Assembly (NCBI GenBank): GCA_947585065.1
Contig: CANPWX010000001.1
Location: 7,274-71,273, forward strand
DNA from: an uncultured Bacilli bacterium
GTDB taxonomy: Bacteria > Bacillota_I > Bacilli_A > RF39 > UBA660
Reading direction: 5' to 3'
Length of the DNA: 64,000 nucleotides
The translations under genes and the position numbers were made by a program. This document shows positions 1 through 64,000 of the stretch, one piece after another. A model generated the notes under the pieces. It searched no databases and was not told where the DNA came from. It saw nothing but the letters and a program-made list of their open reading frames with translations. Each line of letters begins with the position of its first letter. Position 1 is the stretch's first letter.

Positions 1-1
1 A

Positions 2-940
2 GGCTTGACTACTAAAGCCTATGTAGATGAATCTATTAACGATGCATTGTCACCAGTGACTCAAAATATAGAGCAATATGTTACTAATTGATTAGATGAG
101 CATCCAGAAGCAACAACAACAGTAGAGGATGGATCTATATCAGCTCAAAAATTAGAGAAAACTTTATCGGATAAAATGAGTAGATTTAGAGCTGATTATA
201 AATTTTCAGATACTTGAGAACTTAATAAAAATGATTTAAATATAATCGTTGGAGATGGAAATATGCCAAATGGTATAGGTTCTAAAAATATGATTTTAGG
301 TATCGAAAGTTTACAAGCTAATAATCAAGAACATAGCGCAAATAGTGAAATTGCTATTGGATATCATAGTTTATTTAGAGATTGAGATGGACATTTAAAT
401 ACATCAATAGGACATGAAGCTATGGATAATGTTTCTCATGGTGAATATAATGTTGCTATTGGGCCTAGTGCTTTACGTTGTCAAAGAGTAGCTAATTATG
501 ACGGAAATAGCATTGAAGGTGAAACGGCTAATAATAATACTTGTGTAGGTCATGATACAATGCTATATGCTTATGGAAGTAATAATACTATATTAGGAGC
601 TGAAGCATTAAGAGGAACAGGATATGGCTCTACTGGTTCTAATAATATTGCTATTGGCTATTGCGCTGGCAAATGAAATACTGATGAAAATGACCATTTA
701 TATATAGATAATCAAGACAGAAAAAATAGAAGTGGTGAAATTAATAAATCTTTAATTTATGGAACTTTTGCGGAAGACATAGCAAACCAATTTGTTAAAA
801 TTAATGGAATGTTTGCTTGCAATGGAGTTACTCCGCAAGCACCATTAGTAGCGAAAAATGATGCAACTGATTTACAAACCGCAATAGAATTATTAAATCA
901 AATTAAAGATGCGTTACAAAAAGCTGGTATAATGAAATAA
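2..940 (+). CDS. Tail fibre-like repeat protein (5' partial; continues upstream of window); in-frame TGA at 98, 215, 383, 674 read as Trp
   Basis: Frame 2 is open from position 2 to TAA at 938-940 except for TGA codons. Repeats of the NxAIGxxAL / GYGSTGSNNIAIGYCAG type resemble Hep_Hag-like fibre repeats. Confidence 0.55.
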
Positions 941-1054
941 TAAATTACTTATAAAGGTATCAATGATACCATAAAAATCTTTCTTATTTAATAAACTTAA
1001 ATAAGAAAGGAGGCGGAAAGGTCAAGGTATAAAGATCTCTTGACCGATAACCGC

Positions 1055-2887
1055 ATGGATAAATTAAAATACGTTAAATTAGAAAATGAAGATGGTAGTT
1101 ACTCTGAATCAATTCCTCTAGCTGCTGATGCTGAATATATTGATATTAATGGAGATGCTTTACCTAAAATTTTAAATAAAAAACCTTACTATTATAATTC
1201 TGTGGCTGATATGAAAGCGGATACTAAATTACAAGTTGGTGATATGGCTATTACATTAGGTTATTATGAACCAAACGATGGCGGTGCCGCCGAATATAAT
1301 ATTGTTAAAGGAACTTTTCATATTGATTATGGAACATATCATCAGTTGGATAATAATTTAGTTGCTGAATTAATTACACATAATGATACTGTTAATATTT
1401 TACAATATGGAGCAAAAGCAGATGGTATTTATAATAATAGAAATAATTTTACAAGAGCTATGTCATACTCTAAATGTCATCATATAATAGTTCCAGAAAA
1501 AGAAAAATCTTATTTAGTAACAGCTTTACAAATTCAACCAGATATTTTTCTTGAAGGGATTGGTTTTCCTAAAATAGATATTGATTTTGACAATGCTGAA
1601 AACGTAACAAGTTCAATAAAAGGTAGATCAACAATGAAAAATTTATATATAAATTGTTTAGCAGAAAACAAATATGGTTCTAGATTTGCTATTGAAAATA
1701 GTGATGGAGCTAAAATTTTAAATTGTAAATTTGAAGGATTTCGAGATACAGATACTTACAATGCATGAGGAATTTTAATTAGAAAAGAAGCTCATAATTG
1801 AGAAATTAGAGATTGCGAATTTGAAAATAATAGTGAAGCTGATATAGCAATTACTTACGGAGCTAGCAATGGAATTATTTCTCATTGTCGTGGAAGTAAA
1901 TTTAGAATTAATTTAGAACATGATAATGGAGAAGCACATGTTTACAATATAAATATAGAAGATAGCGATATAAAAACATTAACTATTCATGGATATAATT
2001 TTTCTTATATGCCTTTTCATAATATTAATGTATCTAATTGTAAAATAGAAAATCTTGGAGTTCGTTGTGCTGAAGTTAATTTTAATAATTGTAGAATTTT
2101 AGGTTTAATACCTAGTCAATGATATACAAATTATTCTTGTGAGATTAGTAATAATAATTCTTTTTCTTTTGGACCTCAATTAAATAATGATCCTAATTTT
2201 ATGTTATGAAAACATGAATCTAATACTGGAACTGATATTAGAGAATTTTGGCAAAGAAGATATACTAATAATGCTTATAATACAGTAGAAAATACTGAAA
2301 TTGGAAGAACAGTAGTTTTAAATCCAAGAAATAATACTGCTATTGCAGGAATGTATAAATTATTTGCAGTTCAAGCTGGGCATTTTTATATAATGAGAAC
2401 AACTATGAATAATACTAATATAGACTCAGGAGCTTCAAAATATGGTAATTTTGTATATATTACTTGATTTAATGCTGAAAATAATATTATAGATGAAGCC
2501 CATGAAATTTGCATGGATTGTAATAGTAATAAAGGAGTAACAACTAAATTTGCAGAAAAATGATTATGATTATATGCTCCAGAAGGGGCGGTTAAATTAA
2601 AAATTGAACTATGCAATCATAGAACTAGTACTCAAGGAACGACTTGTACGAGATGACATAATTTATTATTAAATGAAGTATTAAATTATGAAAATATTAA
2701 TTATGTTTCTCCAATTGCTAATGATAATAAAACATATAGTTCGACAGAGCCTCCAGTAGGAGATGATGATAATTTTAAAATGATAGGAGATATTATTTAT
2801 AATACTGATTTTGAAACTAATAAAAATATTGAATATTGATTATTAACAAGTAAAGATGGTGTTACGCCAACTTATACAGCAAAATAA
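1055..2887 (+). CDS. Tailspike-like protein with parallel beta-helix (pectin-lyase fold) repeats, paralog A; many in-frame TGA
   Basis: ATG at 1055 (MDKLKYVKLENEDGS). Frame 2 stays open through TGA codons to TAA at 2885-2887. Repeats such as NCKFEGF..DCEFENNS..IAITYGASNGIISHC match a beta-helix. N-terminal block YYYNSVADMK..GDMAITLGYYEPNDGGAAEY is shared with the next gene. Confidence 0.6.
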
Positions 2888-2898
2888 TAATGCTTTAA

Positions 2899-2932
2899 GG
2901 ACTAAATTACTTAAGTAATTTAGTCTTTTTTT
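2899..2932 (+). terminator. Rho-independent terminator (GGACTAAATTACTTAAGTAATTTAGTCC-like hairpin followed by T8)
   Basis: Inverted repeat followed by TTTTTTTT immediately after the stop at 2887. Confidence 0.6.
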
Positions 2933-2975
2933 TATATTATATTAAGGAAAATAAAAATTAAAGGAGGTAATCCTT

Positions 2976-5015
2976 ATGGATAAAATAAAAGCGCTAAAGG
3001 TAAAAGAACCAGATGGTTCACTTAGTGAGAATACATATTTTATAGGTATAGATGCTACAAATGTAGATATGACTAATGGTGAGAATGTTCAAGATACTAT
3101 TGGTAATATAGATTTTAAAGCTGATGGAAGTGTTAAAAAACAATTAGAAGATTTAAGAAAAAATATACCAAATCTTGAAAATGTAGAAAATTTATCTAAA
3201 AAAATTGATAATAATACAAAAGCTATTACTAATATAGAAGGCTCTTTAACACCTATGCGGAATGATATTGATCAATTACAAAAAGATATGAGCAAGAAAG
3301 TTTATTATTATAATACAGTTGCGGAAATGAAATCTGATGCGCAATTAAAAGAAGGGGATATGGCGATTACTCTTGGATATTATAGCGCAAATGATGGTGG
3401 CGGAGCTGAATATAAAATAGTAAGCGGCAATAAATATACTGATGATGGTGGAAGTTATCATAAAATAAAAGATGAATTGTTTGCAGAATTAATTATTAAA
3501 AATGATACAGTTAATGTAAAACAATTTGGAGCAAAAGGCGATAATCAAACTTTTGATACTGACGCTTTTTTAAATGCCATAAAATCTGCTAAAATTATTG
3601 AAATTCCTGAGGTTGAAGACGCTTATTTAGTAGGTGTTTTTGCTATTAGAGAAAATAAAAAAGTTATAGGATTATCTCAAAATAAAGTTAAAATAAATCA
3701 ATTAAGAGGAGAAAATCCTCTAGGTATGGCAGCAATTTTTGCTAATTCATCTGTTGAAAATATTTATTTAAATAGTCTAGATGAAAGTAAACAATGAAAT
3801 AGATGAGGATTAAGTGGAGATAATATTATTATTAAGAATTGTAAAATAGAAGGTTTTAGAGATAATACTAATAACAATGCTTGAGGACTATATCTTAAAA
3901 ATAATAATAATGTAATTATAAAAGATTGTATTTTTGAAAATAATTCACAATCAGATATAGCTATTGTAGATGGAAATTCAAATATTATTATTGAAAATTG
4001 CACTGGTAGTCATATGTATATAAATATGGAACCAAATAATGTAATTATAAATAAAAATATTACAATAAGAGATTGTAATGTTTGAAAGATATCTATGTTA
4101 GAAAACAATTATACTGTTCGTTCGCTTCAAGATATTACAATTGAAAACTGTAATATTGAAGTACTTATGTATAGAGGTGGAAGTGGAAATTTAATAAATA
4201 ATAAGATAGATTCTATTAAAATTCCAGGCGGAGCAAATCATATTTATGCAGGTATACTTCATAATATTAATTCATATGGATATGGGAAACAGATAAATGA
4301 CGACCCATTTTTTTATAATATTACAAATCATGTTGACGAAGTAAAATCTCCTAATTGATCAATAAAATATAGTAGTACAGGTGAGAATATAAGACGTATT
4401 GACGATGAAATTAAAGGAGATGTACTTCAATTAAATCCAAATCATTATAAATCTGCTATGAGAATAATAAAATCTTTTGATATTAAACCAAATACACTAT
4501 ATGAAATAAAAACTTTAATGAATACAACAAATGGAGAAAGCATTCATACTGGAGGGCATGGATTAAGTATTGATTATATGACTCAAGATAACACTCTTAT
4601 AGAAACAAAAGATATTTGCATAGATAGAAATGCAAATATTAATAGTGAAAATGAATGAGAAGAAAAAACATTATTTTTTTTAACTCCTGAAAATGCTGCT
4701 TACATAACTATTACAGTAAGCAATACAATTCCTACTACAACAGATTATAGTATGACAACATGAAAATATTTATTAATTAGAGAAGTCAATTGTACTAATA
4801 AAATTAATAATAATTTAACATTAAAAGATATAAAATCTTATGCTACTTCTGCTCCAACTACTGGTATAAATGCAGTTGGAAGAACTAATAATTTAAATTT
4901 AAAAGGAGAACGATTATATTTACCTTTGAATAGTTTGACAGAAGACTCTGCTTATGAAGGATGAGTTTGCATAAAAGATGGAAACCCAGGAACTTGGAAG
5001 CAGTTTGGAAAAATA
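2976..5015 (+). CDS. Tailspike-like beta-helix protein, paralog B (N-terminal coiled-coil segment then pectate-lyase-like repeats); TGA read-through
   Basis: RBS GGAGG then ATG at 2976. Frame 0 joins track ORFs 2976-3797, 4095-4358 and 4458-4658 through TGA codons to TAG at 5013-5015. N-terminus YYYNTVAEMKSDAQLKEGDMAITLGYYSANDGGGAEYKIVSG is paralogous to gene 1055-2887. Confidence 0.6.
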
Positions 5016-5026
5016 GGTGAATAATA

Positions 5027-5052
5027 AAAGACTTAAAATAAGTCTTTTTTTT
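5027..5052 (+). terminator. Rho-independent terminator (AAGACTTAAAATAAGTCTT + T9)
   Basis: Perfect hairpin plus T-run right after the stop at 5015. Confidence 0.65.
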
Positions 5053-5133
5053 TGGTTTAAAATAATTAAACTATTTAAAAAAACTTTTAATTATAATAGA
5101 AAGAAAAAAGATAGATAAAGGGAGGTTTTTTAC

Positions 5134-5865
5134 ATGACAGTAGAAGACGTAAAAGAATTATTAGAATTAATAACTCCTTATATTTATGTCATCGCCCCTA
5201 TAATTTTTGGTATTTATTTAAAACTTAGAGATAAATTTAAAGAAACTCAAACAAAAATAAAAGATTTAGATGTAGCAAAAGCAAAAGAAGAATATAGCGT
5301 GTGAAAGCATGAAGAATCACAAAGAGTTATAAGAAAAATTAAAGATATGTGTAATCTTTATAAAGATAAAAGCAATGCTGGTTTAGCTCAATATTTGCAA
5401 TTAGAAAATGGAACCATGGCTACTAGTAAAATATGCAATATGTTTGTATCTTGTTTAGCTGAAGATGATAGATATGGTAGAATACCTAAATTAAGTAGCA
5501 GATTACAAAGAGTGCCATATGCAAAAGTAACAAGTTGAATTAATAAAATTATTCAAAATAAAGAAAGCTCAATTAATTATGTATTAACACCAAATGCGGC
5601 TGCCGCTGATTATTCTTTTACTGACATCATTGATGCACCAGAGATAAAATCTTGTATTATTGCTCCAGTTTATGACCAAAACGAAATATTATTAGGTATG
5701 TGCATTTTTTATTATCCTGAAATTAATTTCTGTAACCATGAACAACAAGAGATAGAACTAATTAATCGTTTTAGAACAGCTATTGAGAGCGTCTTATGAG
5801 AATATCATAATGATAGAAAACATAAAAAACAAACCTTAAAGTTGGAGGGCGAGATTAATGAATAG
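5134..5865 (+). CDS. Hypothetical protein (243 codons, 2 in-frame TGA)
   Basis: RBS AAAGGGAGG then ATG at 5134. Frame 1 is open through TGA codons to TAG at 5863-5865. It contains track ORF 5347-5538. Confidence 0.5.
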
Positions 5866-6192
5866 TTTATATGATGCAAGATTTTCAATTTTTATCATTT
5901 TAGACATATTAGGAATTTGTTTATCTGCTTTTATATTTAAAAAATTTATAAAAAAGTTTCCTAACAAGCTAATTCCATTAGTGAATATTAGTATGTCTAT
6001 GATAACAACAATTTGTTATTTAGATTATCATTTCCAAAAGAAAGCACCTATGTTATTTTTAATAGTAATGGGTTTAATTGATGGATTAGCGGCAACGGGA
6101 TTACATCAATTAGTAAAACAAACAAAACAATATATTTTTATAAAATGAAAAATTAAAAATTTTAGAAAAGACAAAAGAAAAATTGTTATGTA
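5858..6192 (+). CDS. Small hydrophobic membrane protein (possible holin-like), 1 TGA
   Basis: The ATG overlaps the upstream stop. There are two to three hydrophobic segments (IFIILDILGICLSAFIF; MITTICYLDY; LFLIVMGLIDGLAATG). The ORF continues past TGA at 6146 to TAA near 6190. Confidence 0.4.
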
Positions 6193-6227
6193 ATTAACAA
6201 TTTAAAAGAGAAAAAGGAGAGATATAT

Positions 6228-9200
6228 ATGGCAGTTAATATCAATTTATTTCCTCCTGTTTTAGACGTCTACATGCCTGCTTTTTTGATTAATAGTAGTG
6301 ATATTCAAAAGAATATATGTAGGGTCTATTTTTCTATTTCTGCTTATAATAATTTATCAGAAATAAAAAATATACAAGTAACAGTAACAAATCAAAATAC
6401 TAATATATCAGTTTTAAATAGAACTAATTATCCGTGTGAAATAATGTTAAGCGAAGTTAAAACTGATTTAACTAGAGATTCTGATGATAAATATTATGTT
6501 GAAATAAAATCAAGTGATATTGAGGGAGGATTTCAAATAAATCAGTATTATAAAGTTCAATTAAGGTTTACTGGCGCGGATGCCGCTAATGTGGATTTGA
6601 CCTTGCCTCAGGCGATTGATAGCTGGCTTACCGCAAATTTGTCTAACTTCTCAGAATGGTCAACAGTATGTTTAGTTAGAGGAATAAGTACTCCTACTTT
6701 GTCAATATTAGGATTTGATTCAACAGCAGACACAACTCTATGGTCTTTAAATAATGTTGATTTAGTTGGACATTTATCTTTTGCGGATTCCGCGGAAACT
6801 GATACATTAAAAAGTTATCAAATTAAACTTTATAATGCTAATAATGAATTATTAACTGATAGCGGTTTATTATACACTAATAATTATACTAATATAAATG
6901 AATTTAGTTATGTTTTTGAATATAACTTAAATGAAGGAGATAGTTATTATTTTACTTTTGAATATGAAACTGCTAATATGTATAAAGAAAGTTATAGATA
7001 TGATTTTATAATAATTCAAGAATCAGCAGAGATGCTAGATGCAGAAATGACTGCTATACTAGATGAAATCAATGGTTGTATTGGAATAAATATTAAAGAT
7101 AAAATGGGTGTAAATACTTTTGTTGGAAATATTACTATTAGAAGAACATCAAGTGAAAGTAATTTTACTATATGAGAAGATATACATACGGCTTCTTTTG
7201 AAGATAATTCAATATTAGATTACACTTGGTGAGATTTCACTATTAAGAGCGGTGTTTATTATAAATATTTAGCTCAAAAAAGAACTAGTGTAGGTAATAG
7301 AGGTATTCCAATTTATCCTAACAATAATGAACCTATTATGATGTTATTTGATACTATGTATTTAACAGGTCAAGGAAATCAATTAAATATTAGATTTGAT
7401 CCAAAAATAAGTTCATTTAAACGAAATGTTAGTGAGTCTAAGACTGATACTATTGGTTCTAAATATCCATTTGTAAAAAGAAATGGTTATATGGATTACA
7501 AGAGTTTTCCTATTAGTGGTTTAATAACTCATCTTATGGATCCTAGTCATTCTATAACATCAAAAGAAAAAGAATTTAGAGATAGTCTAAGTTATTATGA
7601 AGAATTCAATAAAAAGAATAGAATTGACGATTTTAATGATTGAACTTATGAGCGTGAATTTAGAGAAAAGGTATCTGATTTTTTATACGCTAATAAAGTT
7701 AGATTGTTTAGATCTGCAACTGAAGGAAATATATTAGTTAGATTAATGGATATTAATTTTACTCCTAATGAAATATTAGGTAGAAGAATTTATACATTTA
7801 CTGCGACAGCTTATGAAATTGATGAATTTAATATTAAAAATTGTGATAAATATGGAATAAATAGCTTAGGTACATACGACACACAATTACAATTTAATCA
7901 AGATTATATAGGCCAATTTAATGAAATTATACCTGCTGGTATAAATGTATTAGAACTAATTGAAGAAAAATATAAAAAATATACAAAAGAAGGCTATGTA
8001 GTTAATATAGATTATTTAGATTTTTTAAGGATTGAGATGGAAGATAAGCCTTATTTGATTAATGAAAATGCGGACGGGCCTTATGTAGTTAATGACCGCA
8101 TTCGTGCGCGTGAAGAACTGACTTCCGCATATTTAGGCTATTTAGTTTATATTAATGAACAGCCTATTGTAATTAATCCTGAAGGTATATATGAATTAAA
8201 AGGTGAAGATATTAAAATTACTTCATTACGTTTTCCTATTGATACAAAAATAAATATTGATTATCATACTTATATTAGCCAAAAAGAAGATAATACTCAA
8301 CTAGTAAAAACTAATACTTTTTATAAAAGAGTTGGACAATTATGAGGGGGATTTGCGCCTAATGATTCTTTATATCAACAAATTTGAAATAAATATTTTG
8401 AAAAATATTCAACGTATATGCAAACATTATTGTCTTTAGATGAGATTAAAGTAGAGGCTGAACCTGGTACTGTAGTATACGTTAAGGAATCTAAAGATAA
8501 AGATTTTCAACGTCATGTAATTGGTGAAACTCATACTTTAGATTTTTATTCTGAAGATTGCACAATTAATGGATTATATTTTGCAGGCTTGCATTTTGAA
8601 GAAGCTAATGAAAGTGAAAAAGAAAAAGATATACTTCCAAGTAATAAATTTATAGATACTGGGATAATATTAGATAAGTATGTTAGTGATACATCAGATT
8701 TAATTGAAAATGGTGTATATACATTGGCAGATGATTATTTAGAAGTATTAGACCATTTTGAAGGAGCTTACAGTTTTAAATCTAAAAAACAATTTCCACC
8801 AGATACTGCTTCCGCGAATCAAGATAATATAGAACATAGTGATATAAATAAAGCATACACTTTATTATTAGATAGAGTATATGAGTCTATTGATGATGAT
8901 GGCGGTATATTGGTTGATCATGAATTTGTTGAAGATGTCCATGGAGATTATTGAACTGGAGAACTTTATGTAGATGGTAATTTTGATGAAAATCAAATCA
9001 ATCAAATAGATGCCAATAACTCTGAAGATTTTATTAAATCAGGAGATAAAGTATTAAAAAATGGCTATACATTTAAATCAAAGATGCAAGAACCTGAAAA
9101 TGATACTGCTTCAGCCAATTCTAAGCAAATGGAAAAGTCAGAAACTACATATACAATAAGTTTAAATAAAGAATATGACGAATACTATAATTTAGTAGTT

Positions 9201-11434: not shown

Positions 11435-11453
11435 AGTAAAAGGAGTGTTAAAG

Positions 11454-52717: not shown

Positions 52718-52779
52718 ATAAAAAATCCTTTCTTTATAATATTATATAATAAATTTTTTAAAAAATAAAAGAAGAATTA

Positions 52780-55422: not shown

Positions 55423-55511
55423 TATTTATCACTCCTCCAACTTAACTTAATTATATAATATTTTTTATTAAAAATCAATTTATACATATAAGTTCTCAAT
55501 TTATATTTATA

Positions 55512-56254: not shown

Positions 56255-56267
56255 GGAGGCGTTTAAT

Positions 56268-56537
56268 ATGAATTTTGATCCAAGACACTTTGGAAGCACA
56301 TTCCAAGAAAATAAGATTAATGGTTTTGATATTATGATAATGGATAGTGCGGAACGAGCTGATAAAATTATAAAAGAAATAAAAGAAAGAATTAATTATT
56401 ATTTAGATAATAAATTGCTTATAGATAAAAATTTTGAATTTCAATATAGTACTGATGGAATATTAATATCAGACCAATACAGAATTGAAAAAGAACTTAA
56501 AAGGTTTTGCGCATCTAAGGGTATAACTTTAGATTAA
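56268..56537 (+). CDS. Hypothetical protein (89 aa)
   Basis: RBS AAGGAGG then ATG at 56268. Confidence 0.45.
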   Translation: MNFDPRHFGSTFQENKINGFDIMIMDSAERADKIIKEIKERINYYLDNKLLIDKNFEFQYSTDGILISDQYRIEKELKRFCASKGITLD

Positions 56538-56548
56538 TAAAACCTAAA

Positions 56549-56577
56549 TTGATTTTTTAAAAATTTTTTGATATAAT
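56549..56577 (+). promoter_or_regulatory. Sigma-A-type promoter TTGATT-N17-TATAAT (extended TG)
   Basis: Matches the consensus. Located upstream of 56610. Confidence 0.6.
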
Positions 56578-56609
56578 TTTAATAGAAAAAAGAAAGAGAG
56601 GAAAATATT

Positions 56610-56993
56610 ATGGAAGAAAAGAAATTAACTAAGAAAGAATTTTATGAATTAATCAAGGAAGTTGTTACTAAAAGTGATGCTGAAGATAAAGATAATTTAA
56701 TCGATTTCTTAGACAGACAAGTTGAAATCCTTGAAAACAAAGCAGAAAAAGCAAAAGAAAGAGCTGCTGAAAAGAGAGCTGCTGGGGATGAATTAAGAGG
56801 AGTTATTAAAACATTATTAACTTCAGAATACCAAACAGCAGATGAAATTGTTGCAAAATTTGTTGATGAAGATGTAACAAAAGCAAAAGTTGTTGCAAGA
56901 TTAGGACAACTTGTTAAAAATGAAGAAGTTGAAAAAACTGACATTAAAACTGAAGATGGAAGAACTGTTAAAGCATATCGTCTTGCAGAATAA
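56610..56993 (+). CDS. Hypothetical Lys/Glu-rich protein (127 aa)
   Basis: Intact ORF, RBS AGAGAGG. Confidence 0.45.
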   Translation: MEEKKLTKKEFYELIKEVVTKSDAEDKDNLIDFLDRQVEILENKAEKAKERAAEKRAAGDELRGVIKTLLTSEYQTADEIVAKFVDEDVTKAKVVARLGQLVKNEEVEKTDIKTEDGRTVKAYRLAE

Positions 56994-57058
56994 TAATATA
57001 TAAAATCAAAGTGAATAGGTTATTCAACTTATTCACTTTTTCTTATTAAGGAGGCTTT

Positions 57059-57847
57059 ATGAAATATTGTTTAAATTATAATAGAACAACACAACAAATG
57101 AAATGTATTCAAGAAGCAGATGAATGAACTATTGAATATAATAGTAAAGATAATACTTTATTAGAATTTTTAGAGTTGCATCAAAATATAAGAATAAATT
57201 TATATATAAAAGAATTATTAGATTTAAAATTTTTAGAAGATTTATGTAATAAATATAAAAATTTATATTTAAAATTATCAAAAGAATATTATGAAAAATT
57301 AAAAGAAAATAAAGTGGATATAAGATTTTATTTTGATATATTAGCAACTGATTGAGATACATTTATTGGATGTATTAATTTTGGCGTTAGTGATATATAT
57401 ATTGCTGAAAATTTAGGATTCGAGTTAGATAAAGTTGCGGCAATCGCTCATTCTAAAGATATAAAATTAAGAGCATTTCCAGATGTAGCGCAATCTAAAT
57501 GAAAAGATTCTGACTCATTAAAAAAATTTTTTATTAGACCTGAAGACATAGATTTCTATAGTGATTATATTGATGTAATAGAATTTTATAATGACGATAA
57601 AAAATTAGAAATTTATTATAAAATATATGCAAAAGATAAAAAATGGTTTGGTAAATTAAATGAAATTATATTAGATTTTAATAGTGAATTAGATAATAAA
57701 TATATAATTCCGAGATTTCCAGAAAAGCGCGTTAGTTGCGGTAAAAGTTGCCTAAAAGGTGGGCATTGCCGCCGCTGTGATAGAATTGAACAATTGTCTA
57801 ATACTCTTGAAGAAAGAAAATTAGTTATTAAAATTGATAAAAATTAA
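57059..57847 (+). CDS. Hypothetical protein (262 codons incl. 4 TGA) not in the ORF track because TGA splits it
   Basis: Strong RBS AAGGAGG then ATG at 57059. Frame 2 is open through TGA at 57125, 57353 and others to TAA at 57845-57847. C-terminal Cys cluster CGKSCLKGGHCRRCD. Confidence 0.45.
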
Positions 57848-57862
57848 AAAATATTATATAAT
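57834..57862 (+). promoter_or_regulatory. Sigma-A-type promoter TTGATA-N17-TATAAT
   Basis: Consensus promoter overlapping the 3' end of the previous gene. RBS AAGGAGG and ATG at 57892 follow. Confidence 0.55.
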
Positions 57863-57891
57863 ATAAATATATATAAAGGAGGAATAAAGAT

Positions 57892-58203
57892 ATGGCTAGA
57901 GGTGCAAATAGCAAGACTATTGCTACTGATATTATTTTAAAAGCATTTCCAGGAAGTTTTACTTATGATAAGGAAATTAGAATTCCTTTTGTGGAAGATG
58001 GAGAAAATATTCAATTAAAATGTGTTTTAACTTGTGCAAAAACAAATGTTGAAGAAAATGGAGAAAATGCTATTCCAGGTGAAGTATCTAATAAAATTAA
58101 TTTTGAAGAACATGAAAAATCAGAAGAGCAAGTTAAACATACTGAGATTAGTGAAGAAGAGAAAGAGAATTTAAGAAATTTAATGAATGTATTAGGATTA
58201 TAA
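57892..58203 (+). CDS. Hypothetical acidic protein (103 aa)
   Basis: Intact ORF. Confidence 0.45.
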   Translation: MARGANSKTIATDIILKAFPGSFTYDKEIRIPFVEDGENIQLKCVLTCAKTNVEENGENAIPGEVSNKINFEEHEKSEEQVKHTEISEEEKENLRNLMNVLGL

Positions 58204-58204
58204 T

Positions 58205-58471
58205 ATGTGGCAAGAAAGAGTTAAAAATGTAATAATTGTTTCTTTTCTTCTAGTATGTTCAGGATGGTGTTTTTTTGAATTTATTAAAGATTATAAAGAA
58301 AGGAATAAACTTCAAGATAGTTTAAATTCATGTTTAATTAATAAACAAGAATTAGGAAATGAAATAGATACTTTGAACAATGATAAAAAAGAATTGCAAA
58401 ATCAAATAGAAATATTGAATAATGAAAAAGCAAATTTACAAAAGGAAATAGAAAATCTAAAAAAAAACTAG
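58205..58471 (+). CDS. TM + coiled-coil protein (88 aa) ending at TAG just after an A9 run; candidate upstream (frame 0 of a frameshift) part of a fusion
   Basis: N-terminal TM VIIVSFLLVCSGWCFF then a heptad-like coiled coil. The stop is TAG at 58469-58471. Confidence 0.5.
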   Translation: MWQERVKNVIIVSFLLVCSGWCFFEFIKDYKERNKLQDSLNSCLINKQELGNEIDTLNNDKKELQNQIEILNNEKANLQKEIENLKKN

Positions 58472-58848
58472 CTGAACAGGCGGCAGCTGCCGCATCTAAA
58501 AATTATAAATTAACAAGTTTTTGGTTTAATGACGGATATGGAACTGGCTCTTGTACTGGCAGTGGTTTATGCGAAAAAGATTTTCAAATAAATGACAAAG
58601 GTTGGTATACTTATCAAGGTAAATTAGTATTAGCTTCCGCAACTAGATATTTATTAAAATATGGATATTCTGAAATTGCAGGGAAAAAATATTATAATTA
58701 TTATGATACTTTAACTATTAATATCAAAGGTAAAGATTATAAAGGAATTATATTAGATTCTTGTGGTGCATGCATGAAAAATAATATTTTAGATTTATTT
58801 GTATCTAATGGCAAATCATCTATTACTACTGGTATAACGGTGAAATAA
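58423..58848 (+). CDS. 3D-domain (MltA/YuiC-like) cell-wall hydrolase-like ORF with no start codon; likely expressed by -1 frameshift from 58205-58471
   Basis: Frame 1 is open 58423-58848 with no ATG, GTG or TTG start near its 5' end. C-terminus ..KGIILDSCGACMKNNILDLFVSNG resembles the 3D-domain motif D.GG.IKGN.IDLF. Upstream sits the A9 run at 58459-58467 and the palindrome GCGGCAGCTGCCGC at 58480-58493. Confidence 0.4.
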
Positions 58849-58866
58849 GAAAATATATTTCACCGT

Positions 58867-58895
58867 TTGATTTTTTTTAAATTTTATAATATAAT
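58867..58895 (+). promoter_or_regulatory. Sigma-A-type promoter TTGATT-N17-TATAAT
   Basis: Consensus promoter. RBS AAAGGAGG and ATG at 58928 follow. Confidence 0.55.
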
Positions 58896-58927
58896 ATTAT
58901 TGTAAAAATTAAAGGAGGAATTTTATT

Positions 58928-59104
58928 ATGGAAATTGAAAAAGTATATGATGATGAAGAAATGGTAATTTTACCACCATATTGGTGGGTAGAATATGTTG
59001 ATGATGATGGACATAAACATTTAGCAGCAATTAAAGATATCGCTTATTTAGAATATATAAAAACTAGATTTACTGTTACAACTGTCAAGGCTATTGAAGA
59101 ATAG
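58928..59104 (+). CDS. Small hypothetical protein (58 aa)
   Basis: RBS AAAGGAGG then ATG. The ORF ends at TAG. Confidence 0.4.
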   Translation: MEIEKVYDDEEMVILPPYWWVEYVDDDGHKHLAAIKDIAYLEYIKTRFTVTTVKAIEE

Positions 59105-59106
59105 AC

Positions 59107-59135
59107 TTGATTTTTTATAAAAATTTTGATATAAT
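59107..59135 (+). promoter_or_regulatory. Sigma-A-type promoter TTGATT-N17-TATAAT (TGATATAAT)
   Basis: Consensus promoter upstream of the Hsp20 gene. Confidence 0.6.
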
Positions 59136-59183
59136 ATTTATGTAAAGATTAGAGATGTTTATTTTAAGGAGTGATTTTTTAGT

Positions 59184-59576
59184 ATGTTTGATTTATTTGA
59201 TACAATTTTAAACCCATTAAATTGGGACAAAGATTTTTATAAATTCAATAGAGAAGAAAAAGATATGCATCCATATTCTGTTCAAGCTGATAAAAATGGT
59301 AATTTTATTATCGTTCATAATATCCTAGGTATTAACAAAGAAGATATAAAATTAACAAAAGAAATAGAAGGCGGAAATACATATATTTTATTAACTGGTT
59401 CTACCAAAGATAGTTTTACAGGTAAAACATATTCAGTTAATTCAAGATTTGCTTTAGATGATAAACAATTAGATTTATCTTCAATTAAAGCACAAGATAA
59501 AAATGGATTATTATATATAATAATCGCAAGCAAAAAAGTAGAAGAAAAGAAAGTAAATAGTATAGCAATAAATTAA
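59184..59576 (+). CDS. Small heat-shock protein (Hsp20/alpha-crystallin family)
   Basis: Alpha-crystallin domain pattern: PYSVQADKNGNFIIVHNILGINKEDIKL..GNTYILLTG..YSVNSRFALDD..DLSSIKAQDKNGLLYIII. Confidence 0.6.
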   Translation: MFDLFDTILNPLNWDKDFYKFNREEKDMHPYSVQADKNGNFIIVHNILGINKEDIKLTKEIEGGNTYILLTGSTKDSFTGKTYSVNSRFALDDKQLDLSSIKAQDKNGLLYIIIASKKVEEKKVNSIAIN

Positions 59577-59646
59577 TAAAAACATATTGTTTTTTAGCTC
59601 TAATCTTTACTTATGGGCGTATAGCCAAGAGGCTATACCTCAATAT

Positions 59647-59721
59647 GCCCAGTTAGCCAAGTAGTTAAGGCATCGGTCTGCAACACCGTGATCCGCGGCG
59701 CACATCCGCGACTGGGCTCCA
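59647..59721 (+). tRNA. tRNA-Cys (anticodon GCA) with non-canonical T-loop
   Basis: Cloverleaf by eye. Acceptor GCCCAGT/ACTGGGC. Anticodon loop CTGCAAC. T-stem CGCGG/CCGCG, but the T-loop reads CGCACAT rather than TTCRANT. Ends TCCA. Confidence 0.5.
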
Positions 59722-59811
59722 AAATTTTTGCAATTTTTATAATCGTTGGGTCGATTTTAATAAAATTATTATTTATATTTTCATATTATAATAGAAAGGA
59801 AAGATTTTATT

Positions 59812-60558
59812 ATGATAGGAATTTATAAAATACAAAATAAAATAAATGGTAAAATTTATATTGGTCAAAGTATTCATATTGAAAGAAGATTTCAAGAGCA
59901 TTGTTTTCCTAGTTCTAATTCTTTAATTAGTAGAGCAATTCATAAATATGGAAAAGAAAATTTTGATTTTACAGTAATAGAAGAATGTAAAATCGAAGAA
60001 TTAGATAAAAAAGAACAATTTTGAATAAAAAAATATAACTCTTTAATACCTTATGGATATAACATTAATGAAGATACCTCAACAACACATACTAATTATT
60101 ATTATAAAGAAAAAGGAGAAATTTTATCTATTATAAATGATTTACAATATTCAAATTTATCAATGAGGCAAATAGCAGATAAACATAATATTAATATTAG
60201 CAATGTGTCTAGAATAAATAGAGGAAGTACACATAAGCAAGAAGGCTTAATATACCCTTTAAGAAAAATTAATGAATACAATTTAAAAAATTATTGTATA
60301 GATTGTGGTAAAGAAATTTCTAAAGGACATTTAAGATGTAATAGTTGTGAGGGTGTTAATAAAAGAATAAAGTTAGAAGATATGCTTATTACTAGAGAAG
60401 ATTTAAAAGATTTAATTAGACATATTCCATTTACAAATATAGCAAAACGATATGGAGTTACTGATAACGCAATTAGAAAATGGTGTGATAAATATAATTT
60501 ACCTAGAACTAAAAAAGAAATTAAATCATATTCAGATAAAGAATGAAAGAATATTTAA
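59812..60558 (+). CDS. GIY-YIG homing endonuclease (2 in-frame TGA)
   Basis: N-terminal GIYKIQNKINGKIYIGQS..RRFQEH. C-terminal helix-turn-helix DNA-binding tail. Track ORFs 59812-60024 and 60163-60546 are in frame and joined by TGA. Confidence 0.6.
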
Positions 60559-61040
60559 TTTCTTCATGCTGACATAGGAAAGCCTTCTCGTGGCGTCAGT
60601 GTTTAAACTAATTTCCTGTATGTTTTTATTTTTGAAAGAAACAAGCAGCAAAAGACTGTATCTAATATAATCTAATGTGAATCGTTTCTTGTATTTTAGG
60701 AAAGATAAGGTAAAAATAAAAGAAAACTTTAAAGATAGAAGGTCTATCATATTTAATTTAATTTATTAAAATTCCGTTAAGTGATATTAAATTCGCACTT
60801 TGAATATTTTATTTGCTCCCTCAATAGTAAATAATTTAGAAAGATGGTCGGAAAATTTTTAAAGAAAATTAAATAAGATGCGGAGATGACTGAACCGTAA
60901 AAGCAGACTTTTATTTCTTATTGGAACTATAATTGAAAATAAAAATGTTAGGTGCGGGAGCTCGCTTTGTAGCTACATAAGTCGAGGTCTAATCGATGAT
61001 TAAGCGGTTTCCGCAACTATTAATTATTGGAGGGATAGAT

Positions 61041-61415
61041 ATGAAAGTAATTAAATGGATAAATGAAAAAGAAGTTCACGATACTTTAAAACAAGTATAT
61101 GATAAGCAATGGGAAATATATAGTTATATTCCTGTATATGAAGAATTACCCGATAAAGATTTTGATATGGCTGTTGATGCTCTTATAAAAGAATTAGCAG
61201 AAAATAAATATATAATATGTGGAGATACTCATCAATATTGTGCAATACCTGTATTTGATGATAATAAATATTTAATATTATCTCAACGTAGATGGGCTGA
61301 AATAATGGCTGAAGCGGCAAATATAGCTAAAGAATTTAGTGGAAAATTTACTTATCTAGATTTTTATTTAGCAAGTTTTTGTCCTATTGATGAAAATATT
61401 CCAAATAAAAAATAA
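61041..61415 (+). CDS. Hypothetical protein (124 aa)
   Basis: RBS GGAGGG then ATG at 61041. Confidence 0.45.
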   Translation: MKVIKWINEKEVHDTLKQVYDKQWEIYSYIPVYEELPDKDFDMAVDALIKELAENKYIICGDTHQYCAIPVFDDNKYLILSQRRWAEIMAEAANIAKEFSGKFTYLDFYLASFCPIDENIPNKK

Positions 61416-61416
61416 T

Positions 61417-61445
61417 TTGATATTTTTAAAAATTTATTATATAAT
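61417..61445 (+). promoter_or_regulatory. Sigma-A-type promoter TTGATA-N17-TATAAT
   Basis: Consensus promoter. RBS and ATG at 61480 follow. Confidence 0.55.
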
Positions 61446-61479
61446 ATAAATGTAATAAAGAAAGGAAGAGTGAAGAAAT

Positions 61480-61710
61480 ATGGCTAAAAGAAGAGGAAAA
61501 TCTGGAAATGGCGAAGCACAATACAGTATTACTCAAGCCAATTTAGATAAAAAAGGAAAAACAAATAAAAAATTAAAAAGAAATCCTATGTCATCTAAAT
61601 ATCTTACTCCGAGAGGTAAAGAAATAAAAGAAGCGGCTGCCGCCTATGCAGCTGAGCATAAAAAAGGAACAGGAAGAAGATATAGAAAAACTACTGAAGT
61701 AGCCTCATAA
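61480..61710 (+). CDS. Small basic protein (76 aa)
   Basis: Intact Lys/Arg-rich ORF. Confidence 0.4.
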   Translation: MAKRRGKSGNGEAQYSITQANLDKKGKTNKKLKRNPMSSKYLTPRGKEIKEAAAAYAAEHKKGTGRRYRKTTEVAS

Positions 61711-61717
61711 TGAGGAG

Positions 61718-61918
61718 GTGAGTCTTATGGCTATGCATAAGGCAATTAAAAGTGGTAAAGAACATAGAAAAGAATATGTTGGAAAAAATTATTGCAAATC
61801 TGTTGATCCAAGCTGCCGTAATCATGGCTCTTGTTCTTGGTGTTTAGGCAATAGAATAAATAAAGAAAAAAGTAAGGACAGATTAGCAAAAAAAGAGATT
61901 AGAGATTTTTATAAATAG
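61718..61918 (+). CDS. Small Cys-rich protein (66 aa)
   Basis: RBS GGAGG then ATG. C..C..H..C..C pattern. Confidence 0.4.
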   Translation: MSLMAMHKAIKSGKEHRKEYVGKNYCKSVDPSCRNHGSCSWCLGNRINKEKSKDRLAKKEIRDFYK

Positions 61919-61948
61919 TATAGACACAATCAGCAAAGTAATAATATT

Positions 61949-62018
61949 GGATATTAGTTTATTGGTTAAACATTTACCTTGCAAGTAAAAGAAGATGGTT
62001 CGAATCCATCATTACCCT
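61949..62018 (+). ncRNA. Degenerate tRNA-like element (anticodon-loop CTTGCAA = UGC; acceptor with 2 mismatches; one-nt 8-9 linker)
   Basis: D arm GTTT/AAAC, anticodon stem TTTAC/GTAAA, T arm GATGG-TTCGAAT-CCATC. The acceptor GGATATT/ATTACCC is poor and there is no G3-U70. An 8-bp inverted repeat TAGACACA/TGTGTCTA flanks the element. Confidence 0.25.
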
Positions 62019-62041
62019 TTATATGTGTCTAGCTTATATAT

Positions 62042-62119
<78 letters not shown>

Positions 62120-62122
62120 TAT

Positions 62123-62198
62123 TGCCTCGTGGTGAAATGGTAACACAAACGGCTTTGAACCGTTCATTTTCCTGGTTCGAACCCAGGCGGGGCAGCCA
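62123..62198 (+). tRNA. tRNA-Gln (TTG)
   Basis: U1-A72 acceptor TGCCTCG/CGGGGCA. Anticodon stem-loop AACGG-CTTTGAA-CCGTT. T arm CCTGG-TTCGAAC-CCAGG. Ends GCCA. Confidence 0.75.
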
Positions 62199-62304
62199 AT
62201 GAAAAAATAATATTTAATATACACATGGGAAACGCAGTTGTGACTCGAGTTATAGAACGAAGGACTGCCAGCTTACTGTAGTTGAGAGGTTGGGTAAGCA
62301 TTTT

Positions 62305-62382
62305 GGGGGTATAGCTCTAACGGCTAGAGCGTCTCGCTTGCAACGAGAAGGTTGTGGGTTCGAATCTCCACTACCTCCACCA
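62305..62382 (+). tRNA. tRNA-Ala (TGC)
   Basis: G3-U70 identity pair. Anticodon loop CTTGCAA. T arm GTGGG-TTCGAAT-CTCCAC. Ends CCA. Confidence 0.8.
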
Positions 62383-62387
62383 TTTAT

Positions 62388-62468
62388 GTCATAATAGTTC
62401 AGTGGAAGAACATTACATACATTATTGTATTGTAAAGGTCGCAAGTTCGAATCTTGCTTATGGCTACC
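62388..62468 (+). ncRNA. Aberrant tRNA-like element: normal acceptor, D and T arms, but the anticodon arm is replaced by a 9-bp bulged hairpin with a 4-nt loop (13-nt region TACATTATTGTAT)
   Basis: Acceptor GTCATAA/TTATGGC, D arm GTTC-AGTGGAA-GAAC, T arm GCAAG-TTCGAAT-CTTGC. There is no 7-nt anticodon loop. Confidence 0.35.
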
Positions 62469-62599
62469 TATATCACAAACCTTCCTATTTAATGTGATTT
62501 GCGGGCTTCGATGCTCGCTGCGGAAATGCTAGATTTAACGCACGTTAATCTCGATTAATAAGCGTATGACCTTGATTTCCGCAGGGGGTTTTGAAATTT

Positions 62600-63018
62600 G
62601 GGCTTGTATTTGGTTTCGACTAGATTGCAAGAGTATTGGAATACAAGTAGTAGGCAGTTACTTAAAAGGCAACAAAAAATAAATAACAACATTTTTTCAA
62701 AAATTGTTAGTAAAGTTAAATCTTTATTCGCTGTTAATAGCGTAGTCTTCGCGTAAGGCTAAACAATCTTCTATGCGAAGTATCAGAGTAAACAGAGAAA
62801 AGTATAGTCGTATTAACTAGACAAAGTTTACTATTCTATTGACTGTCCCTAGCCGTGGAATATAGAATAATTTACTTATATGCGTAGGGCTGACTCTAAG
62901 ATTTGTATGTGGTAGGAGCAACAGATAGAACGATATGCACAAAACTTGTAAGGTAAGAATGAGATTTCCAGTATATCCCAATACTAGGACATGGGTTCGA
63001 GTCCCATCAGGTCCACCA
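62600..63018 (+). ncRNA. ssrA: tmRNA (SsrA)
   Basis: The 5' end GGGCTTGTATTTGGTTTCGAC matches the consensus GGGGCUGAUUCUGGAUUCGAC. The 3' end is a tRNA-like domain ATGGG-TTCGAGT-CCCAT-CAGGTCC-A-CCA with G3-U70. An internal open frame ..AAC AAC AUU UUU UCA AAA AUU GUU AGU AAA GUU AAA UCU UUA UUC GCU GUU AAU AGC GUA GUC UUC GCG UAA (tag ending ..AVNSVVFA) lies about 85-157 nt from the 5' end. Confidence 0.7.
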
Positions 63019-63019
63019 T

Positions 63020-63096
63020 GCGGGTTTAGCTCAGTTGGTTAGAGCGCAGTCCTGATAAGACTGAGGTCCTAGGTCCAAGTCCTAGAACCCGCACCA
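63020..63096 (+). tRNA. tRNA-Ile (GAT)
   Basis: Acceptor GCGGGTT/AACCCGC. Anticodon loop CTGATAA. T arm CTAGG-TCCAAGT-CCTAG. Ends CCA. Confidence 0.8.
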
Positions 63097-63099
63097 TAT

Positions 63100-63174
63100 A
63101 CGCTTGTCGTCCAATGGTTAGGGCTTTCGGCTTATATCCGAACTATCGGGGTTCAAATCCCTGCGAGCGTACCA
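63100..63174 (+). tRNA. tRNA-Ile2 (TAT anticodon, decoding AUA)
   Basis: Acceptor ACGCTTG/CGAGCGT. Anticodon stem TTCGG/CCGAA with loop CTTATAT (anticodon UAU). T arm CGGGG-TTCAAAT-CCCTG. Ends ACCA. Confidence 0.6.
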
Positions 63175-63303
63175 AATTGATAAATAATAGTTTAATTATT
63201 TTAAAATTTTCCATTTTATTTTTTCTATAAAAATAAAATGCTTCCTTCCTTTATCGAGCAGGTCATTTGGTGTAACTGTGCATAGCTCTTCACATATATT
63301 TTT

Positions 63304-63333
63304 ATTGATATTTTTTAAAAAATATTATATAAT
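63304..63333 (+). promoter_or_regulatory. Sigma-A-type promoter TTGATA-N18-TATAAT
   Basis: Consensus promoter. RBS AGAGAAG and ATG at 63365 follow. Confidence 0.5.
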
Positions 63334-63364
63334 ATATATGTAATAAAGAAAGAGAAGTGATAAT

Positions 63365-63739
63365 ATGAATAAATTTTATGAAAAGAAAGAATATGATTGG
63401 GAATATGAATATTCATTTGGTGAAGATTTTTTAAAATCTATTTTTAAAAATGATTACAAAAGAGTTTATTCATTAAATGGAGAAGGTATATTTAATATTA
63501 TCACAATAAATAATAAATATTATTCAATAGATTTAAAATCTGCTAAATCAATGTTAGTTAATGATGGCAAAAAAGCATTTAGAGATGCAACAAAAGATGT
63601 TATAATAACATCAATAGCAGATGGATTAAATAAATTAAATTTAGAATATACCATTAATAGCGGAAAATTTATTACATTTAAAATGTTTAATAGTATATTT
63701 AAAATAGAAGTTGTTAAAAAGGCGGCAATGCCTAATTAA
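63365..63739 (+). CDS. Hypothetical protein (124 aa)
   Basis: Intact ORF. Confidence 0.45.
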   Translation: MNKFYEKKEYDWEYEYSFGEDFLKSIFKNDYKRVYSLNGEGIFNIITINNKYYSIDLKSAKSMLVNDGKKAFRDATKDVIITSIADGLNKLNLEYTINSGKFITFKMFNSIFKIEVVKKAAMPN

Positions 63740-63820
63740 TTGATTTTTAATAAAAATTATATTATAATAAGTATATAAAGAATAAAAAGTTTAATATATA
63801 GATGAGGATAAGGGATTCTT

Positions 63821-64000
63821 ATGGAAGAAAAATGAAAAAAATATTATAAAAATTATTCAGTAAGTAATTATGGGAGAGTTCGTAATGATAATACTAATAA
63901 AATAAGAAAATTAACAAAAAATACTTATGGTTATTTAAGAACTAATATTACTAACAATGCTGAAAATACCCATAAAGAAATTAAAGTTCATAGAGCTGTA
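63821..64000 (+). CDS. HNH-family homing endonuclease (NUMOD4-like N-terminus), 3' partial, 1 TGA
   Basis: MEEKWKKYYKNYSVSNYGRVRN..GYLRTNI..HRAV matches the YxVSNxGRVRS / HNH_3 N-terminal pattern. Runs off the window end. Confidence 0.5.

Follow-up and report, generated by a model that had tools for sequence, protein, structure and literature searches.

The stretch of DNA analysed here, referred to as the window, comprises 64,000 nucleotides of contig CANPWX010000001.1 (positions 7,274 to 71,273 of the forward strand; GenBank assembly GCA_947585065.1), deposited as an uncultured Bacilli bacterium. Very probably it represents about half of a 100-145 kb AT-rich tailed phage from animal gut or rumen, and this account concerns its use of the codon TGA, which is frequent within the tail genes and nearly absent from the core replication genes. 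The window has a GC content of 28%, and its three transcription arms (forward at 1-16.8 kb, reverse at 16.9-55.4 kb, and a second forward arm at 55.5-64 kb) track the GC skew. Genes were called with translation table 4, from the first ATG to TAA or TAG, which gave 71 non-overlapping open reading frames (ORFs). Their identities were taken from Pfam and PHROGs, and DNA polymerase III alpha (Pol III alpha) was recognised by tblastn against annotated phage Pol III alpha/YorL. When TGA is treated as a sense codon, the DNA lying within ORFs of at least 100 codons increases from 50 kb to 70 kb.

Genes of the window and their in-frame TGA codons

The left forward arm houses tail spike and tail fibre genes, a holin gene and genes for large tail proteins. 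The first three genes, at 176-940, 1055-2887 and 2976-5024, match tail spike, tail fibre and virion structural families in PHROGs and together contain 20 TGA and 2 TGG codons, the gene at 2976-5024 alone accounting for 8 TGA and 1 TGG. Directly 3' of this heavily recoded tail gene lies a lysis cassette (5134-6193), made up of a gene with a hydrophobic N-terminal stretch (5134-5865; 3 TGA, 0 TGG), which to judge from its sequence may encode a membrane protein, and the holin gene (5858-6193; PHROGs 1129 and 1299; 1 TGA, 0 TGG). There follow two large tail/baseplate-like genes at 6228-11434 (PHROGs 30026, 32343 and 1887, the last annotated as a tail protein), the first of 1049 codons with 7 TGA and 6 TGG, the second of 685 codons with 7 TGA and 2 TGG. 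Individual tail, baseplate and holin genes hold up to 9 in-frame TGA each. A gene without assigned function at 12169-13434 contains 3 TGA and 2 TGG, and the distal part of the arm (13418-16832) is occupied by seven small genes, poor in tryptophan (Trp) codons and not rich in TGA (1 TGA, 5 TGG).

The reverse arm begins, in the numbering of the window, with an intermediate block at 16866-24771 (9 TGA, 16 TGG) that encodes RuvC (16866-17372; 3 TGA, 1 TGG), an SPFH protein (no TGA or TGG), dUTPase, a DUF5662 protein, peptide deformylase, NrdG (2 TGA, 4 TGG) and NrdD (2 TGA, 2 TGG). The Pol III alpha gene of 1318 codons (24903-28859) has 17 TGG codons and no TGA. Next comes a mixed block (28916-34771), in which a possible methyltransferase gene has 2 TGA and 2 TGG; a zinc-ribbon/DUF5889 gene that may encode an endonuclease (30431-31216) has 3 TGA and no TGG; a superfamily 1 (SF1) helicase gene has no TGA and 6 TGG; a DHH/RecJ-like gene has 5 TGA, one of them probably upstream of the true start, and 4 TGG; and a small ORF, again possibly an endonuclease gene (34571-34771), has 3 TGA and no TGG. 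The core replication block (34771-54039) encodes primase, DnaB, an AAA_24 protein, a ClpP-like protease, LigA, GyrA, GyrB, RNase H and RNA ligase, and contains 61 TGG codons against only 2 TGA. One of these two stands as codon 2 of 40497-41135, a gene whose start is uncertain, and the other lies in a GIY-YIG gene (41199-42131); the few TGA found at codons 2-9 of reverse-arm genes are probably 5' of the true start. The first two genes of this arm (54070-55423) are an unknown gene (1 TGA, 2 TGG) and one for a metallophosphatase (2 TGA, 1 TGG).

The right forward arm carries small genes (55568-61918; 5 TGA, 12 TGG), eight transfer RNA (tRNA) genes and a transfer-messenger RNA (tmRNA) gene. Among the small genes is one for a GIY-YIG endonuclease (59812-60558; 2 TGA, 1 TGG), in which a single TGA four codons before the end is ambiguous between stop and Trp.

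Taken by module, TGA and TGG number 41 and 12 in the late forward arm (176-13434; a TGA fraction of 0.77), 1 and 5 at 13418-16832, 9 and 16 at 16866-24771, 15 and 33 at 24903-34771, 5 and 64 (0.07) in the replication block as far as the start of the arm (34771-55423), and 5 and 13 on the right forward arm (55568-63739). The late genes differ from the replication core with p = 4.5e-16 (Fisher), and the six modules differ among themselves with a chi-square of 67 (p = 4e-13). As a control, eleven other NNA/NNG codon pairs end in A at frequencies of 0.72-1.00, mostly about 0.9, with no difference between modules, and the GC content at third codon positions (GC3) is 0.11-0.18 in all of them. Base composition is therefore not the cause, since the other A/G pairs are uniform. 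Nor is TGA avoided as a triplet: the replication core has 79 and 418 TGA in its two other frames, so that only in-frame TGA is avoided. On passing from table 11 to table 4, coverage of the 1-16.8 kb region by long ORFs goes up from 0.62 to 0.96, but that of 35-55.4 kb only from 0.89 to 0.91. In all there are 76 in-frame TGA codons, confined to 26 of the 71 genes (37%). The genes end in TAA (53) or TAG (18), an outcome built into the gene-calling rule, and the informative part of the stop analysis is that no TGA-free early gene terminates in TGA. With TAA or TAG closing every gene, there is no need of TGA as a stop.

This distribution was first pointed out in a reading made from the sequence alone, without database searches (the sequence-only reading). 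Its central claim, that TGA usage is specific to modules, is confirmed: the ratio of TGA to TGG is far from uniform across modules once genes are called with table 4. The 1049-codon ORF that it had traced across TGA codons holds, with the seven noted above, and no genuine TGA stop came to light, the ambiguous codon in 59812-60558 apart. Its gene identities stood up to Pfam and PHROGs, and that of Pol III alpha to tblastn, while the methyltransferase call found no Pfam match. Elsewhere its statements need trimming. The forward arm at 1-16.8 kb, described as having several TGA in most of its genes, is TGA-rich only as far as 13434. Pol III alpha is indeed free of TGA, with 17 Trp codons where about 20 had been estimated. 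Genes of the middle class were said to hold one to three TGA, which is true of NrdD, NrdG and RuvC and not of the DHH gene. Avoidance of TGA on the replication arm applies to the core and fails in the promoter-proximal genes at 54070-55423. The SPFH gene, offered as a TGG-only example, has no Trp codon at all and is therefore uninformative on the point.

Several features of the reverse and right arms may be recorded alongside. Host-like accessory genes on the reverse strand encode the SPFH/flotillin protein (17444-18943), peptide deformylase (21389-21853) and the ClpP-like protease (40497-41135). Outside the tail module, the genes richest in TGA are those for RuvC, the GIY-YIG endonuclease and the two unclassified possible endonucleases, which suggests that nucleases are deliberately held back by their TGA content.

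The meaning of TGA and its usage among related phages

Three queries to IMG/VR, namely Pol III alpha, the 685-codon tail protein and RNA ligase, yielded 79, 5 and 80 related loci respectively, and nine more came from genome bins. The last gene of the window (124 residues) has no relatives in IMG/VR and is present only on a 976-nt contig; looking up the exact protein sequence of Pol III alpha gave no match. Loci were classed by the in-frame TGA and TAG counted where they are homologous to window genes. Of those that could be classed, 32 are recoded at TGA, with Pol III mostly about 76-85% identical to that of the window, and 42 are recoded at TAG, with Pol III mostly at most 73% identical; the two kinds of recoding are never mixed within one classed locus. 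Contigs of relatives reach 100-144 kb, and records of relatives derive from sheep rumen, rumen-derived and rabbit metagenomes.

The TAG lineage provides an independent reference for the meaning of TGA, because it contains no in-frame TGA. Opposite the TGA sites of the window, 197 of 316 aligned cells in the TAG lineage are TGG-Trp, where the background frequency of Trp is 1.2%. At 25 of the 40 testable sites most cells are Trp, while glycine (Gly) is the majority at none and occurs in 2 of the 316 cells. In a likelihood ranking based on substitution profiles from the same alignments, Trp leads the next amino acid, tyrosine, by 130 log units, and Gly falls outside the top five. For individual genes, TAG-recoded orthologues mostly have TGG-Trp at six of the seven TGA sites of the 685-codon gene, the seventh being phenylalanine, and at two of the seven in the 1049-codon gene; two of the three sites in 12169-13434 are Trp in TAG-lineage orthologues, and both TGA sites of the metallophosphatase (54070-55423 region) align to Trp in the sole orthologue available from that lineage. 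Within the TGA lineage, the two codons TGA and TGG freely replace one another at orthologous positions, and 120 cells that are TGG in the window align to TGA. These alignments show that TGA stands for Trp, and neither for Gly nor for stop. Distant NrdD structures were also tried as a guide and proved uninformative, both TGA sites being variable in those homologues.

In the TAG lineage itself (for example L030, L046, L083-L085, L128, L131 and L132), TAG sites align mostly with glutamate (Glu), at 112 of 379 window positions, and with glutamine (Gln) at 39. A likelihood comparison of the TAG sites puts Glu 39 log units ahead of Gln, so that in the sister lineage TAG may stand for Glu, or for a mixture of Glu and Gln.

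Counts of TGA and TGG for each gene were extended to the 32 TGA-lineage loci. The 22 Pol III orthologues, 78-85% identical to the protein of the window, together hold 17 TGA and 371 TGG, and 12 of those 17 TGA fall within two loci. TGA is likewise shunned in the genes for RNA ligase (0 TGA, 50 TGG), GyrB (0 and 19) and the AAA_24 protein (0 and 35) and in the gene at 39127-40077 (0 and 29). Other genes accumulate it: RuvC (21 TGA, 2 TGG), 30431-31216 (35 and 3), 34571-34771 (15 and 0), GIY-YIG 59812-60558 (10 and 2), and the late genes together (32 and 14). The avoidance of TGA in core replication genes is thus inherited across the TGA lineage and is gene-specific. A gene-specific pattern kept across a lineage argues for selection on the genes, rather than recent transfer or base composition. 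The division between early and late genes is nevertheless a tendency and not a rule, because both the genes at 54070-55423 and some Pol III orthologues (in L007 and L009) contain TGA.

Search for suppressor tRNAs in the window and its relatives

The eight tRNA genes of the window lie at 59647-63174 on the forward strand and were assigned by ARAGORN as Cys-GCA, two of Ala-UGC, Met-CAU, Gln-UUG, one odd gene, Ile-GAU and Ile-UAU. The tmRNA gene, missed by ARAGORN, lies inside the cluster at 62600-63018 on the same strand (Rfam RF00023, 56 bits), and the relative L099 has a tmRNA at the same place. The odd tRNA (62388-62465, forward) has a 13-nt anticodon loop and is read by ARAGORN as Cys(ACA), or as Thr(UGU) with a 6-nt insert; it was considered as a hidden suppressor and ruled out, as the 13-nt loop contains no UCA. 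Another unusual tRNA (61949-62018, forward) is AT-rich and Ala(UGC)-like, with mismatches in the acceptor stem and an anticodon that is not UCA.

No tRNA(UCA) was found in the 64-kb window by ARAGORN, Rfam, the covariance model R1 with its filters off, or mismatch-tolerant pattern searches. With filters off, R1 matched only the eight known window tRNAs, and pattern searches of the same tolerance found neither half of the suppressor gene of the relatives in the window. In six-frame translations of the window and of 3.1 Mb of fetched loci, the release factor motif GGQ and the motif KMSKS of tryptophanyl-tRNA synthetase (TrpRS) gave chance matches only. The sequence-only reading had proposed a search of the remainder of the genome for a TGA-reading tRNA or release-factor genes; the 64-kb window contains none. 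Borges et al. (bioRxiv 10.1101/2021.08.26.457843) detected a suppressor tRNA in only 35% of TGA-recoded genomes.

Among the relatives, a tRNA(UCA) gene lies beside the same RNA ligase gene, in a homologous tRNA cluster, in L096, L097/L182 and L099/L180. It is intact in L096, at c(598-692), and split in the other two, which are two of the closest relatives of the window (the L097 contig is 144 kb long). The tRNA(UCA) of the relatives has the pair A1-U72 and G73, which are identity marks of bacterial tRNA-Trp. Loci that carry tRNA(UCA) gain ORF coverage under table 4, and L096 and L183 additionally carry tRNA-Trp(CCA). As a side observation, L096/L177 (IMGVR_UViG_3300035520_000607) shows no in-frame TGA among the 15 genes of the early region that were compared, and L096 may carry a suppressor while being recoded barely or not at all.

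An unbiased scan, keyed on the D-arm and the UCA loop only, found tRNA(UCA) at 14 loci in IMG/VR and 55 in metagenomes. Genes with a fifth arm occur also in L177, L179, L181, L183, L184, L186, L189 and L192, and in the metagenome loci L193-L247; ordinary four-arm tRNA(UCA) genes are present in other contigs. In the 38 distinct complete five-arm sequences, the long variable arm has a 5-bp stem, represented by 19 different covarying sequences, and a 7-nt loop that in 36 of the 38 reads [C/G]TCCA[A/T]A and so matches the anticodon loop of tRNA-Trp(CCA); in L096 the variable-arm loop is identical to that of the neighbouring tRNA-Trp(CCA) gene. An alignment of ten sequences shows compensatory changes in four of the five variable-arm pairs, and the minimum-energy fold is a five-arm cloverleaf. 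No description of such an arm was found in the literature searched.

Phage tRNA(CUA) genes were scanned for in an equally unbiased way. Of the 105 distinct sequences obtained, 35 have a long variable arm, and 28 of the 35 bear a YCTGA or TTTGA motif there (for example CTCTGAA, TTCTGAR, CTTTGAA), like the anticodon loop of tRNA-Gln(CUG/UUG); the bearers include one of the suppressors of phAss-1 (L249 12445-12532, reverse strand; OQ749652.1: 62445-62532), L156 (3064-3150) and about 30 among L250-L369. The Trp-like and Gln-like arm motifs never cross between UCA and CUA suppressors.

In two relatives, L180 and L182, a homing-endonuclease intron of about 600 nt interrupts the tRNA(UCA) gene directly behind U34. 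The gene lies at about 9829-10523 (forward) in L180, which is on the same contig as L099; in L182, on the same contig as L097, the 3' exon lies at about 4419-4477 on the reverse strand with the 5' exon about 600 nt away. The ORF of the insert encodes a PD-(D/E)XK endonuclease (PF11645) and itself contains an in-frame TGA; ARAGORN misses the split gene. Rfam recognised no group I intron there at a cut-off as loose as E <= 10, so that the class of the intron is unproven. A weak match to an HDV-like (hepatitis delta virus-like) ribozyme (RF02682, 23 bits, below the family threshold) at L180 10525-10583 (forward), equivalent to L099 701-759 (reverse), begins two bases beyond the point where the split tRNA(UCA) ends, a tRNA whose gene does not encode CCA, and may be a theta-type ribozyme. 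Theta ribozymes have been reported beside amber suppressors, and the same survey reported none beside TGA suppressors in code-4 phages (PMC10879173).

It is tempting to suggest that the code switch is brought about by such a five-arm tRNA-Trp(UCA), whose variable arm would show CCA, the normal identity element, to a standard-code TrpRS while UGA was read by the true anticodon, the copy belonging to the genome of the window lying outside the 64 kb. We offer this tentatively, as a possibility that we put at somewhat short of even. The Gln-like arms of tRNA(CUA) would be a parallel case, and by analogy support a general design. A split gene hidden from standard tRNA finders could, in addition, help to explain the apparent lack of a suppressor in most TGA-recoded phages.

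Host, alternative explanations and known systems

The Pol III alpha of the window shares about 40% identity with the proteins of SPbeta-like Bacillus phages and of 140-kb Enterococcus phages, and the 685-codon tail protein is 30% identical to its counterpart in the same Enterococcus phages and 31% to that of the TAG-recoded phAss-1. Part of nrdD (22490-23249, reverse strand) has 80% nucleotide identity to two phages of Thomasclavelia ramosa, TR-TP1 and TR-TP2, although the rest of their sequence is distant and neither annotation nor ORF coverage gives a sign of recoding in them. A recent exchange of genes with Thomasclavelia phages is indicated, which is a hint as to host range. TR-TP1 was considered as a recoded relative and rejected: its late genes are annotated as intact under table 11 (one is a 7.2-kb ORF), and the gain in coverage under table 4 is small. 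A non-recoded Enterocloster phage has been assigned to the same group (PMC10607447). The nearest relatives in culture infect standard-code Bacillota, those with known hosts infecting Enterococcus, and together these relationships make a standard-code member of the Bacillota the most likely host. No bacterial host is known to read TAG generally as a standard amino acid, and as a sister lineage recodes TAG, the recoding appears to be a property of the phage and not the code of its host.

The explanation that we consider very probable is, accordingly with the sequence-only reading, that the window belongs to a stop-codon-recoded phage of a standard-code Bacillota host, in which TGA has been reassigned from stop to Trp and would serve as a lock on late genes. 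It has the support of the codon split, the Trp alignments, the TAG sister lineage and the hosts of cultured relatives. Since TGA is absent, or very nearly so, from the core replication genes, these can be translated in an unmodified cell, in which release factor 2 (RF2) stops at UGA. Infection would then proceed in three steps: the TGA-free early genes would be translated by the host machinery; a phage-encoded tRNA-Trp(UCA), from a gene outside the window, would build up; and UGA would come to be read as Trp, making the tail, lysis, RuvC and endonuclease genes translatable. Until that point the tail, baseplate, holin, RuvC and endonuclease genes would yield no full-length protein, so that recoding might act as a translational lock or timer on late and potentially toxic proteins.

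Several points weigh against this explanation. When the genes are expressed is judged only from gene function and layout, and the part played by the tRNA is likewise inferred. The promoter-proximal genes of the reverse arm (54070-55423), with their 3 TGA, depart from the avoidance expected of early genes, and the Pol III orthologues in L007 and L009 carry 6 TGA. Apart from the tRNAs of the relatives, neither the window nor the 3.1 Mb of loci contains a gene for a suppressor tRNA, a release factor or TrpRS. Finally, the bins that hold relatives (from rumen and rabbit gut) are labelled Bacilli, Clostridia, Clostridium, Erysipelotrichaceae and, in one case, Gastranaerophilales; such labels are weak evidence as to the host.

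The first alternative is that the host natively uses code 4, in the manner of Mycoplasmatota, and that the TGG-only replication genes were recently acquired or are under selection unrelated to timing. The AT-rich genome, the window without a suppressor tRNA and the several relatives in bins labelled only 'Bacilli bacterium' would all fit, the GTDB class Bacilli also including code-4 orders. We nevertheless judge it unlikely: recent acquisition does not accord with 22 TGA-lineage Pol III orthologues that stay at 17 TGA to 371 TGG while other A/G pairs are at 0.9 A, nor a code-4 host with TGA in only 37% of genes and a TGA fraction of 0.07 in the replication core. The recoding of TAG in the sister lineage, the possession by relatives of their own tRNA(UCA), in L096 and L183 together with tRNA-Trp(CCA), and the standard-code hosts of cultured relatives speak in the same sense.

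Slightly less likely still is a mosaic ancestry without regulatory significance, the late module having been recombined from a phage fully adapted to code 4. Phage genomes are modular, and the nrdD segment shared with Thomasclavelia phages attests to recent exchange. Yet on the replication arm the genes for RuvC, the possible endonucleases, NrdG and the DHH protein, all rich in TGA, are scattered among genes free of it; at orthologous sites the two Trp codons replace each other, including the 120 TGG cells of the window that align to TGA; GC3 and the other codon pairs are alike in both arms; and whatever the origin of the module, the present host must decode TGA. That TGA encodes Gly (code 25), in a phage of Gracilibacteria or Absconditabacteria, would agree with a sense codon in an AT-rich genome and is refuted by the alignments, in which Gly takes 2 cells to 197 for Trp, has no majority site and is not among the five likeliest residues. 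The idea that TGA is a real stop, the late arm consisting of pseudogenes, assembly errors, selenocysteine sites or programmed read-through, accounts for the many short ORFs seen there under table 11, but is likewise refuted, because homology and frame are continuous across every one of the 76 in-frame TGA in 26 genes, the sites are kept as TGA or TGG in relatives, and table 4 yields tightly packed same-strand genes with 96% long-ORF coverage.

Recoding of TGA in a phage of a standard-code host thus remains the preferred explanation, and it places the window beside systems already described. Borges et al. (bioRxiv 10.1101/2021.08.26.457843) give figures of 26-71% for recoded phages of standard-code hosts, and of about 90% where the host is recoded; the 37% of genes with in-frame TGA in the window falls inside the former range. 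Their Agate phages have genomes of about 127 kb, come from cattle, pig and tortoise guts, use TGA for Trp in structural and lysis genes while replication genes keep the standard code, mix codes 4, 15 and 11 within the clade, and show bidirectional GC skew; recoding in them is heaviest in three gene families, namely the tail gene that precedes the lysis cassette, a membrane protein of the cassette and an intron endonuclease (bioRxiv 10.1101/2021.08.26.457843). Genome size, gut origin, the split in TGA usage, mixed codes and GC skew are all mirrored in the window or its relatives. Counterparts in the window are the tail gene at 2976-5024 and the gene at 5134-5865 ahead of the holin, and possibly, for the endonuclease, the zinc-ribbon gene at 30431-31216 and the GIY-YIG gene at 59812-60558. 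Membership of the Agate clade is defined by a tree of the terminase large subunit (at least 95% support), and the window, which has no terminase gene, is likened to it by features. The extra-arm and split suppressor tRNAs of the relatives are not described in the Agate paper. The preprint of Borges et al. is said to have been published later, in Nature Microbiology in 2022.

Other comparisons are looser. In the comparison with phAss-1 the genome sizes are alike (136-142 kb), tRNA clusters and nrdD/nrdG occur on both sides, and the late genes have the recoded codon; phAss-1 differs in recoding TAG rather than TGA, comes from the human gut and is only distantly similar. Jade phages use TGA for Trp in lysis genes and are predicted to infect a standard-code member of the Firmicutes, but have genes for release factor 1 (RF1) and TrpRS beside the suppressor tRNA, neither of which was found in the window or the fetched relatives. 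In crAss-like and Lak phages early genes likewise follow the host code and late genes need a phage suppressor tRNA, although TAG is read as Gln, the hosts are Bacteroidota and the phages are of an unrelated lineage. Code-4 phages of Mycoplasma and Spiroplasma also read TGA as Trp. In such phages TGA is expected throughout, at the frequency set by mutation bias; in the window, by contrast, its share of the Trp codons is 7% for the replication core and 77% for the tail genes.

The phenomenon seen in the window is therefore that of Borges et al., another example of a published strategy. For annotation, it means that table 11 shreds the late genes of such phages and that table 4 is advisable. In its own right it is a well-controlled case of recoding that holds back late and toxic genes. 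If the variable arm of the suppressor does recruit the synthetase of the host, this would explain how a stop-reading tRNA is charged where host enzymes check the anticodon, and would provide a natural design principle for engineered suppressor tRNAs. Sister lineages whose Pol III alpha sequences differ by some 25-30% have settled on opposite codons, TGA in one and TAG in the other, and the set of locked genes and the set of free ones are kept throughout the lineage, which makes this family well suited to the study of how code switches evolve.

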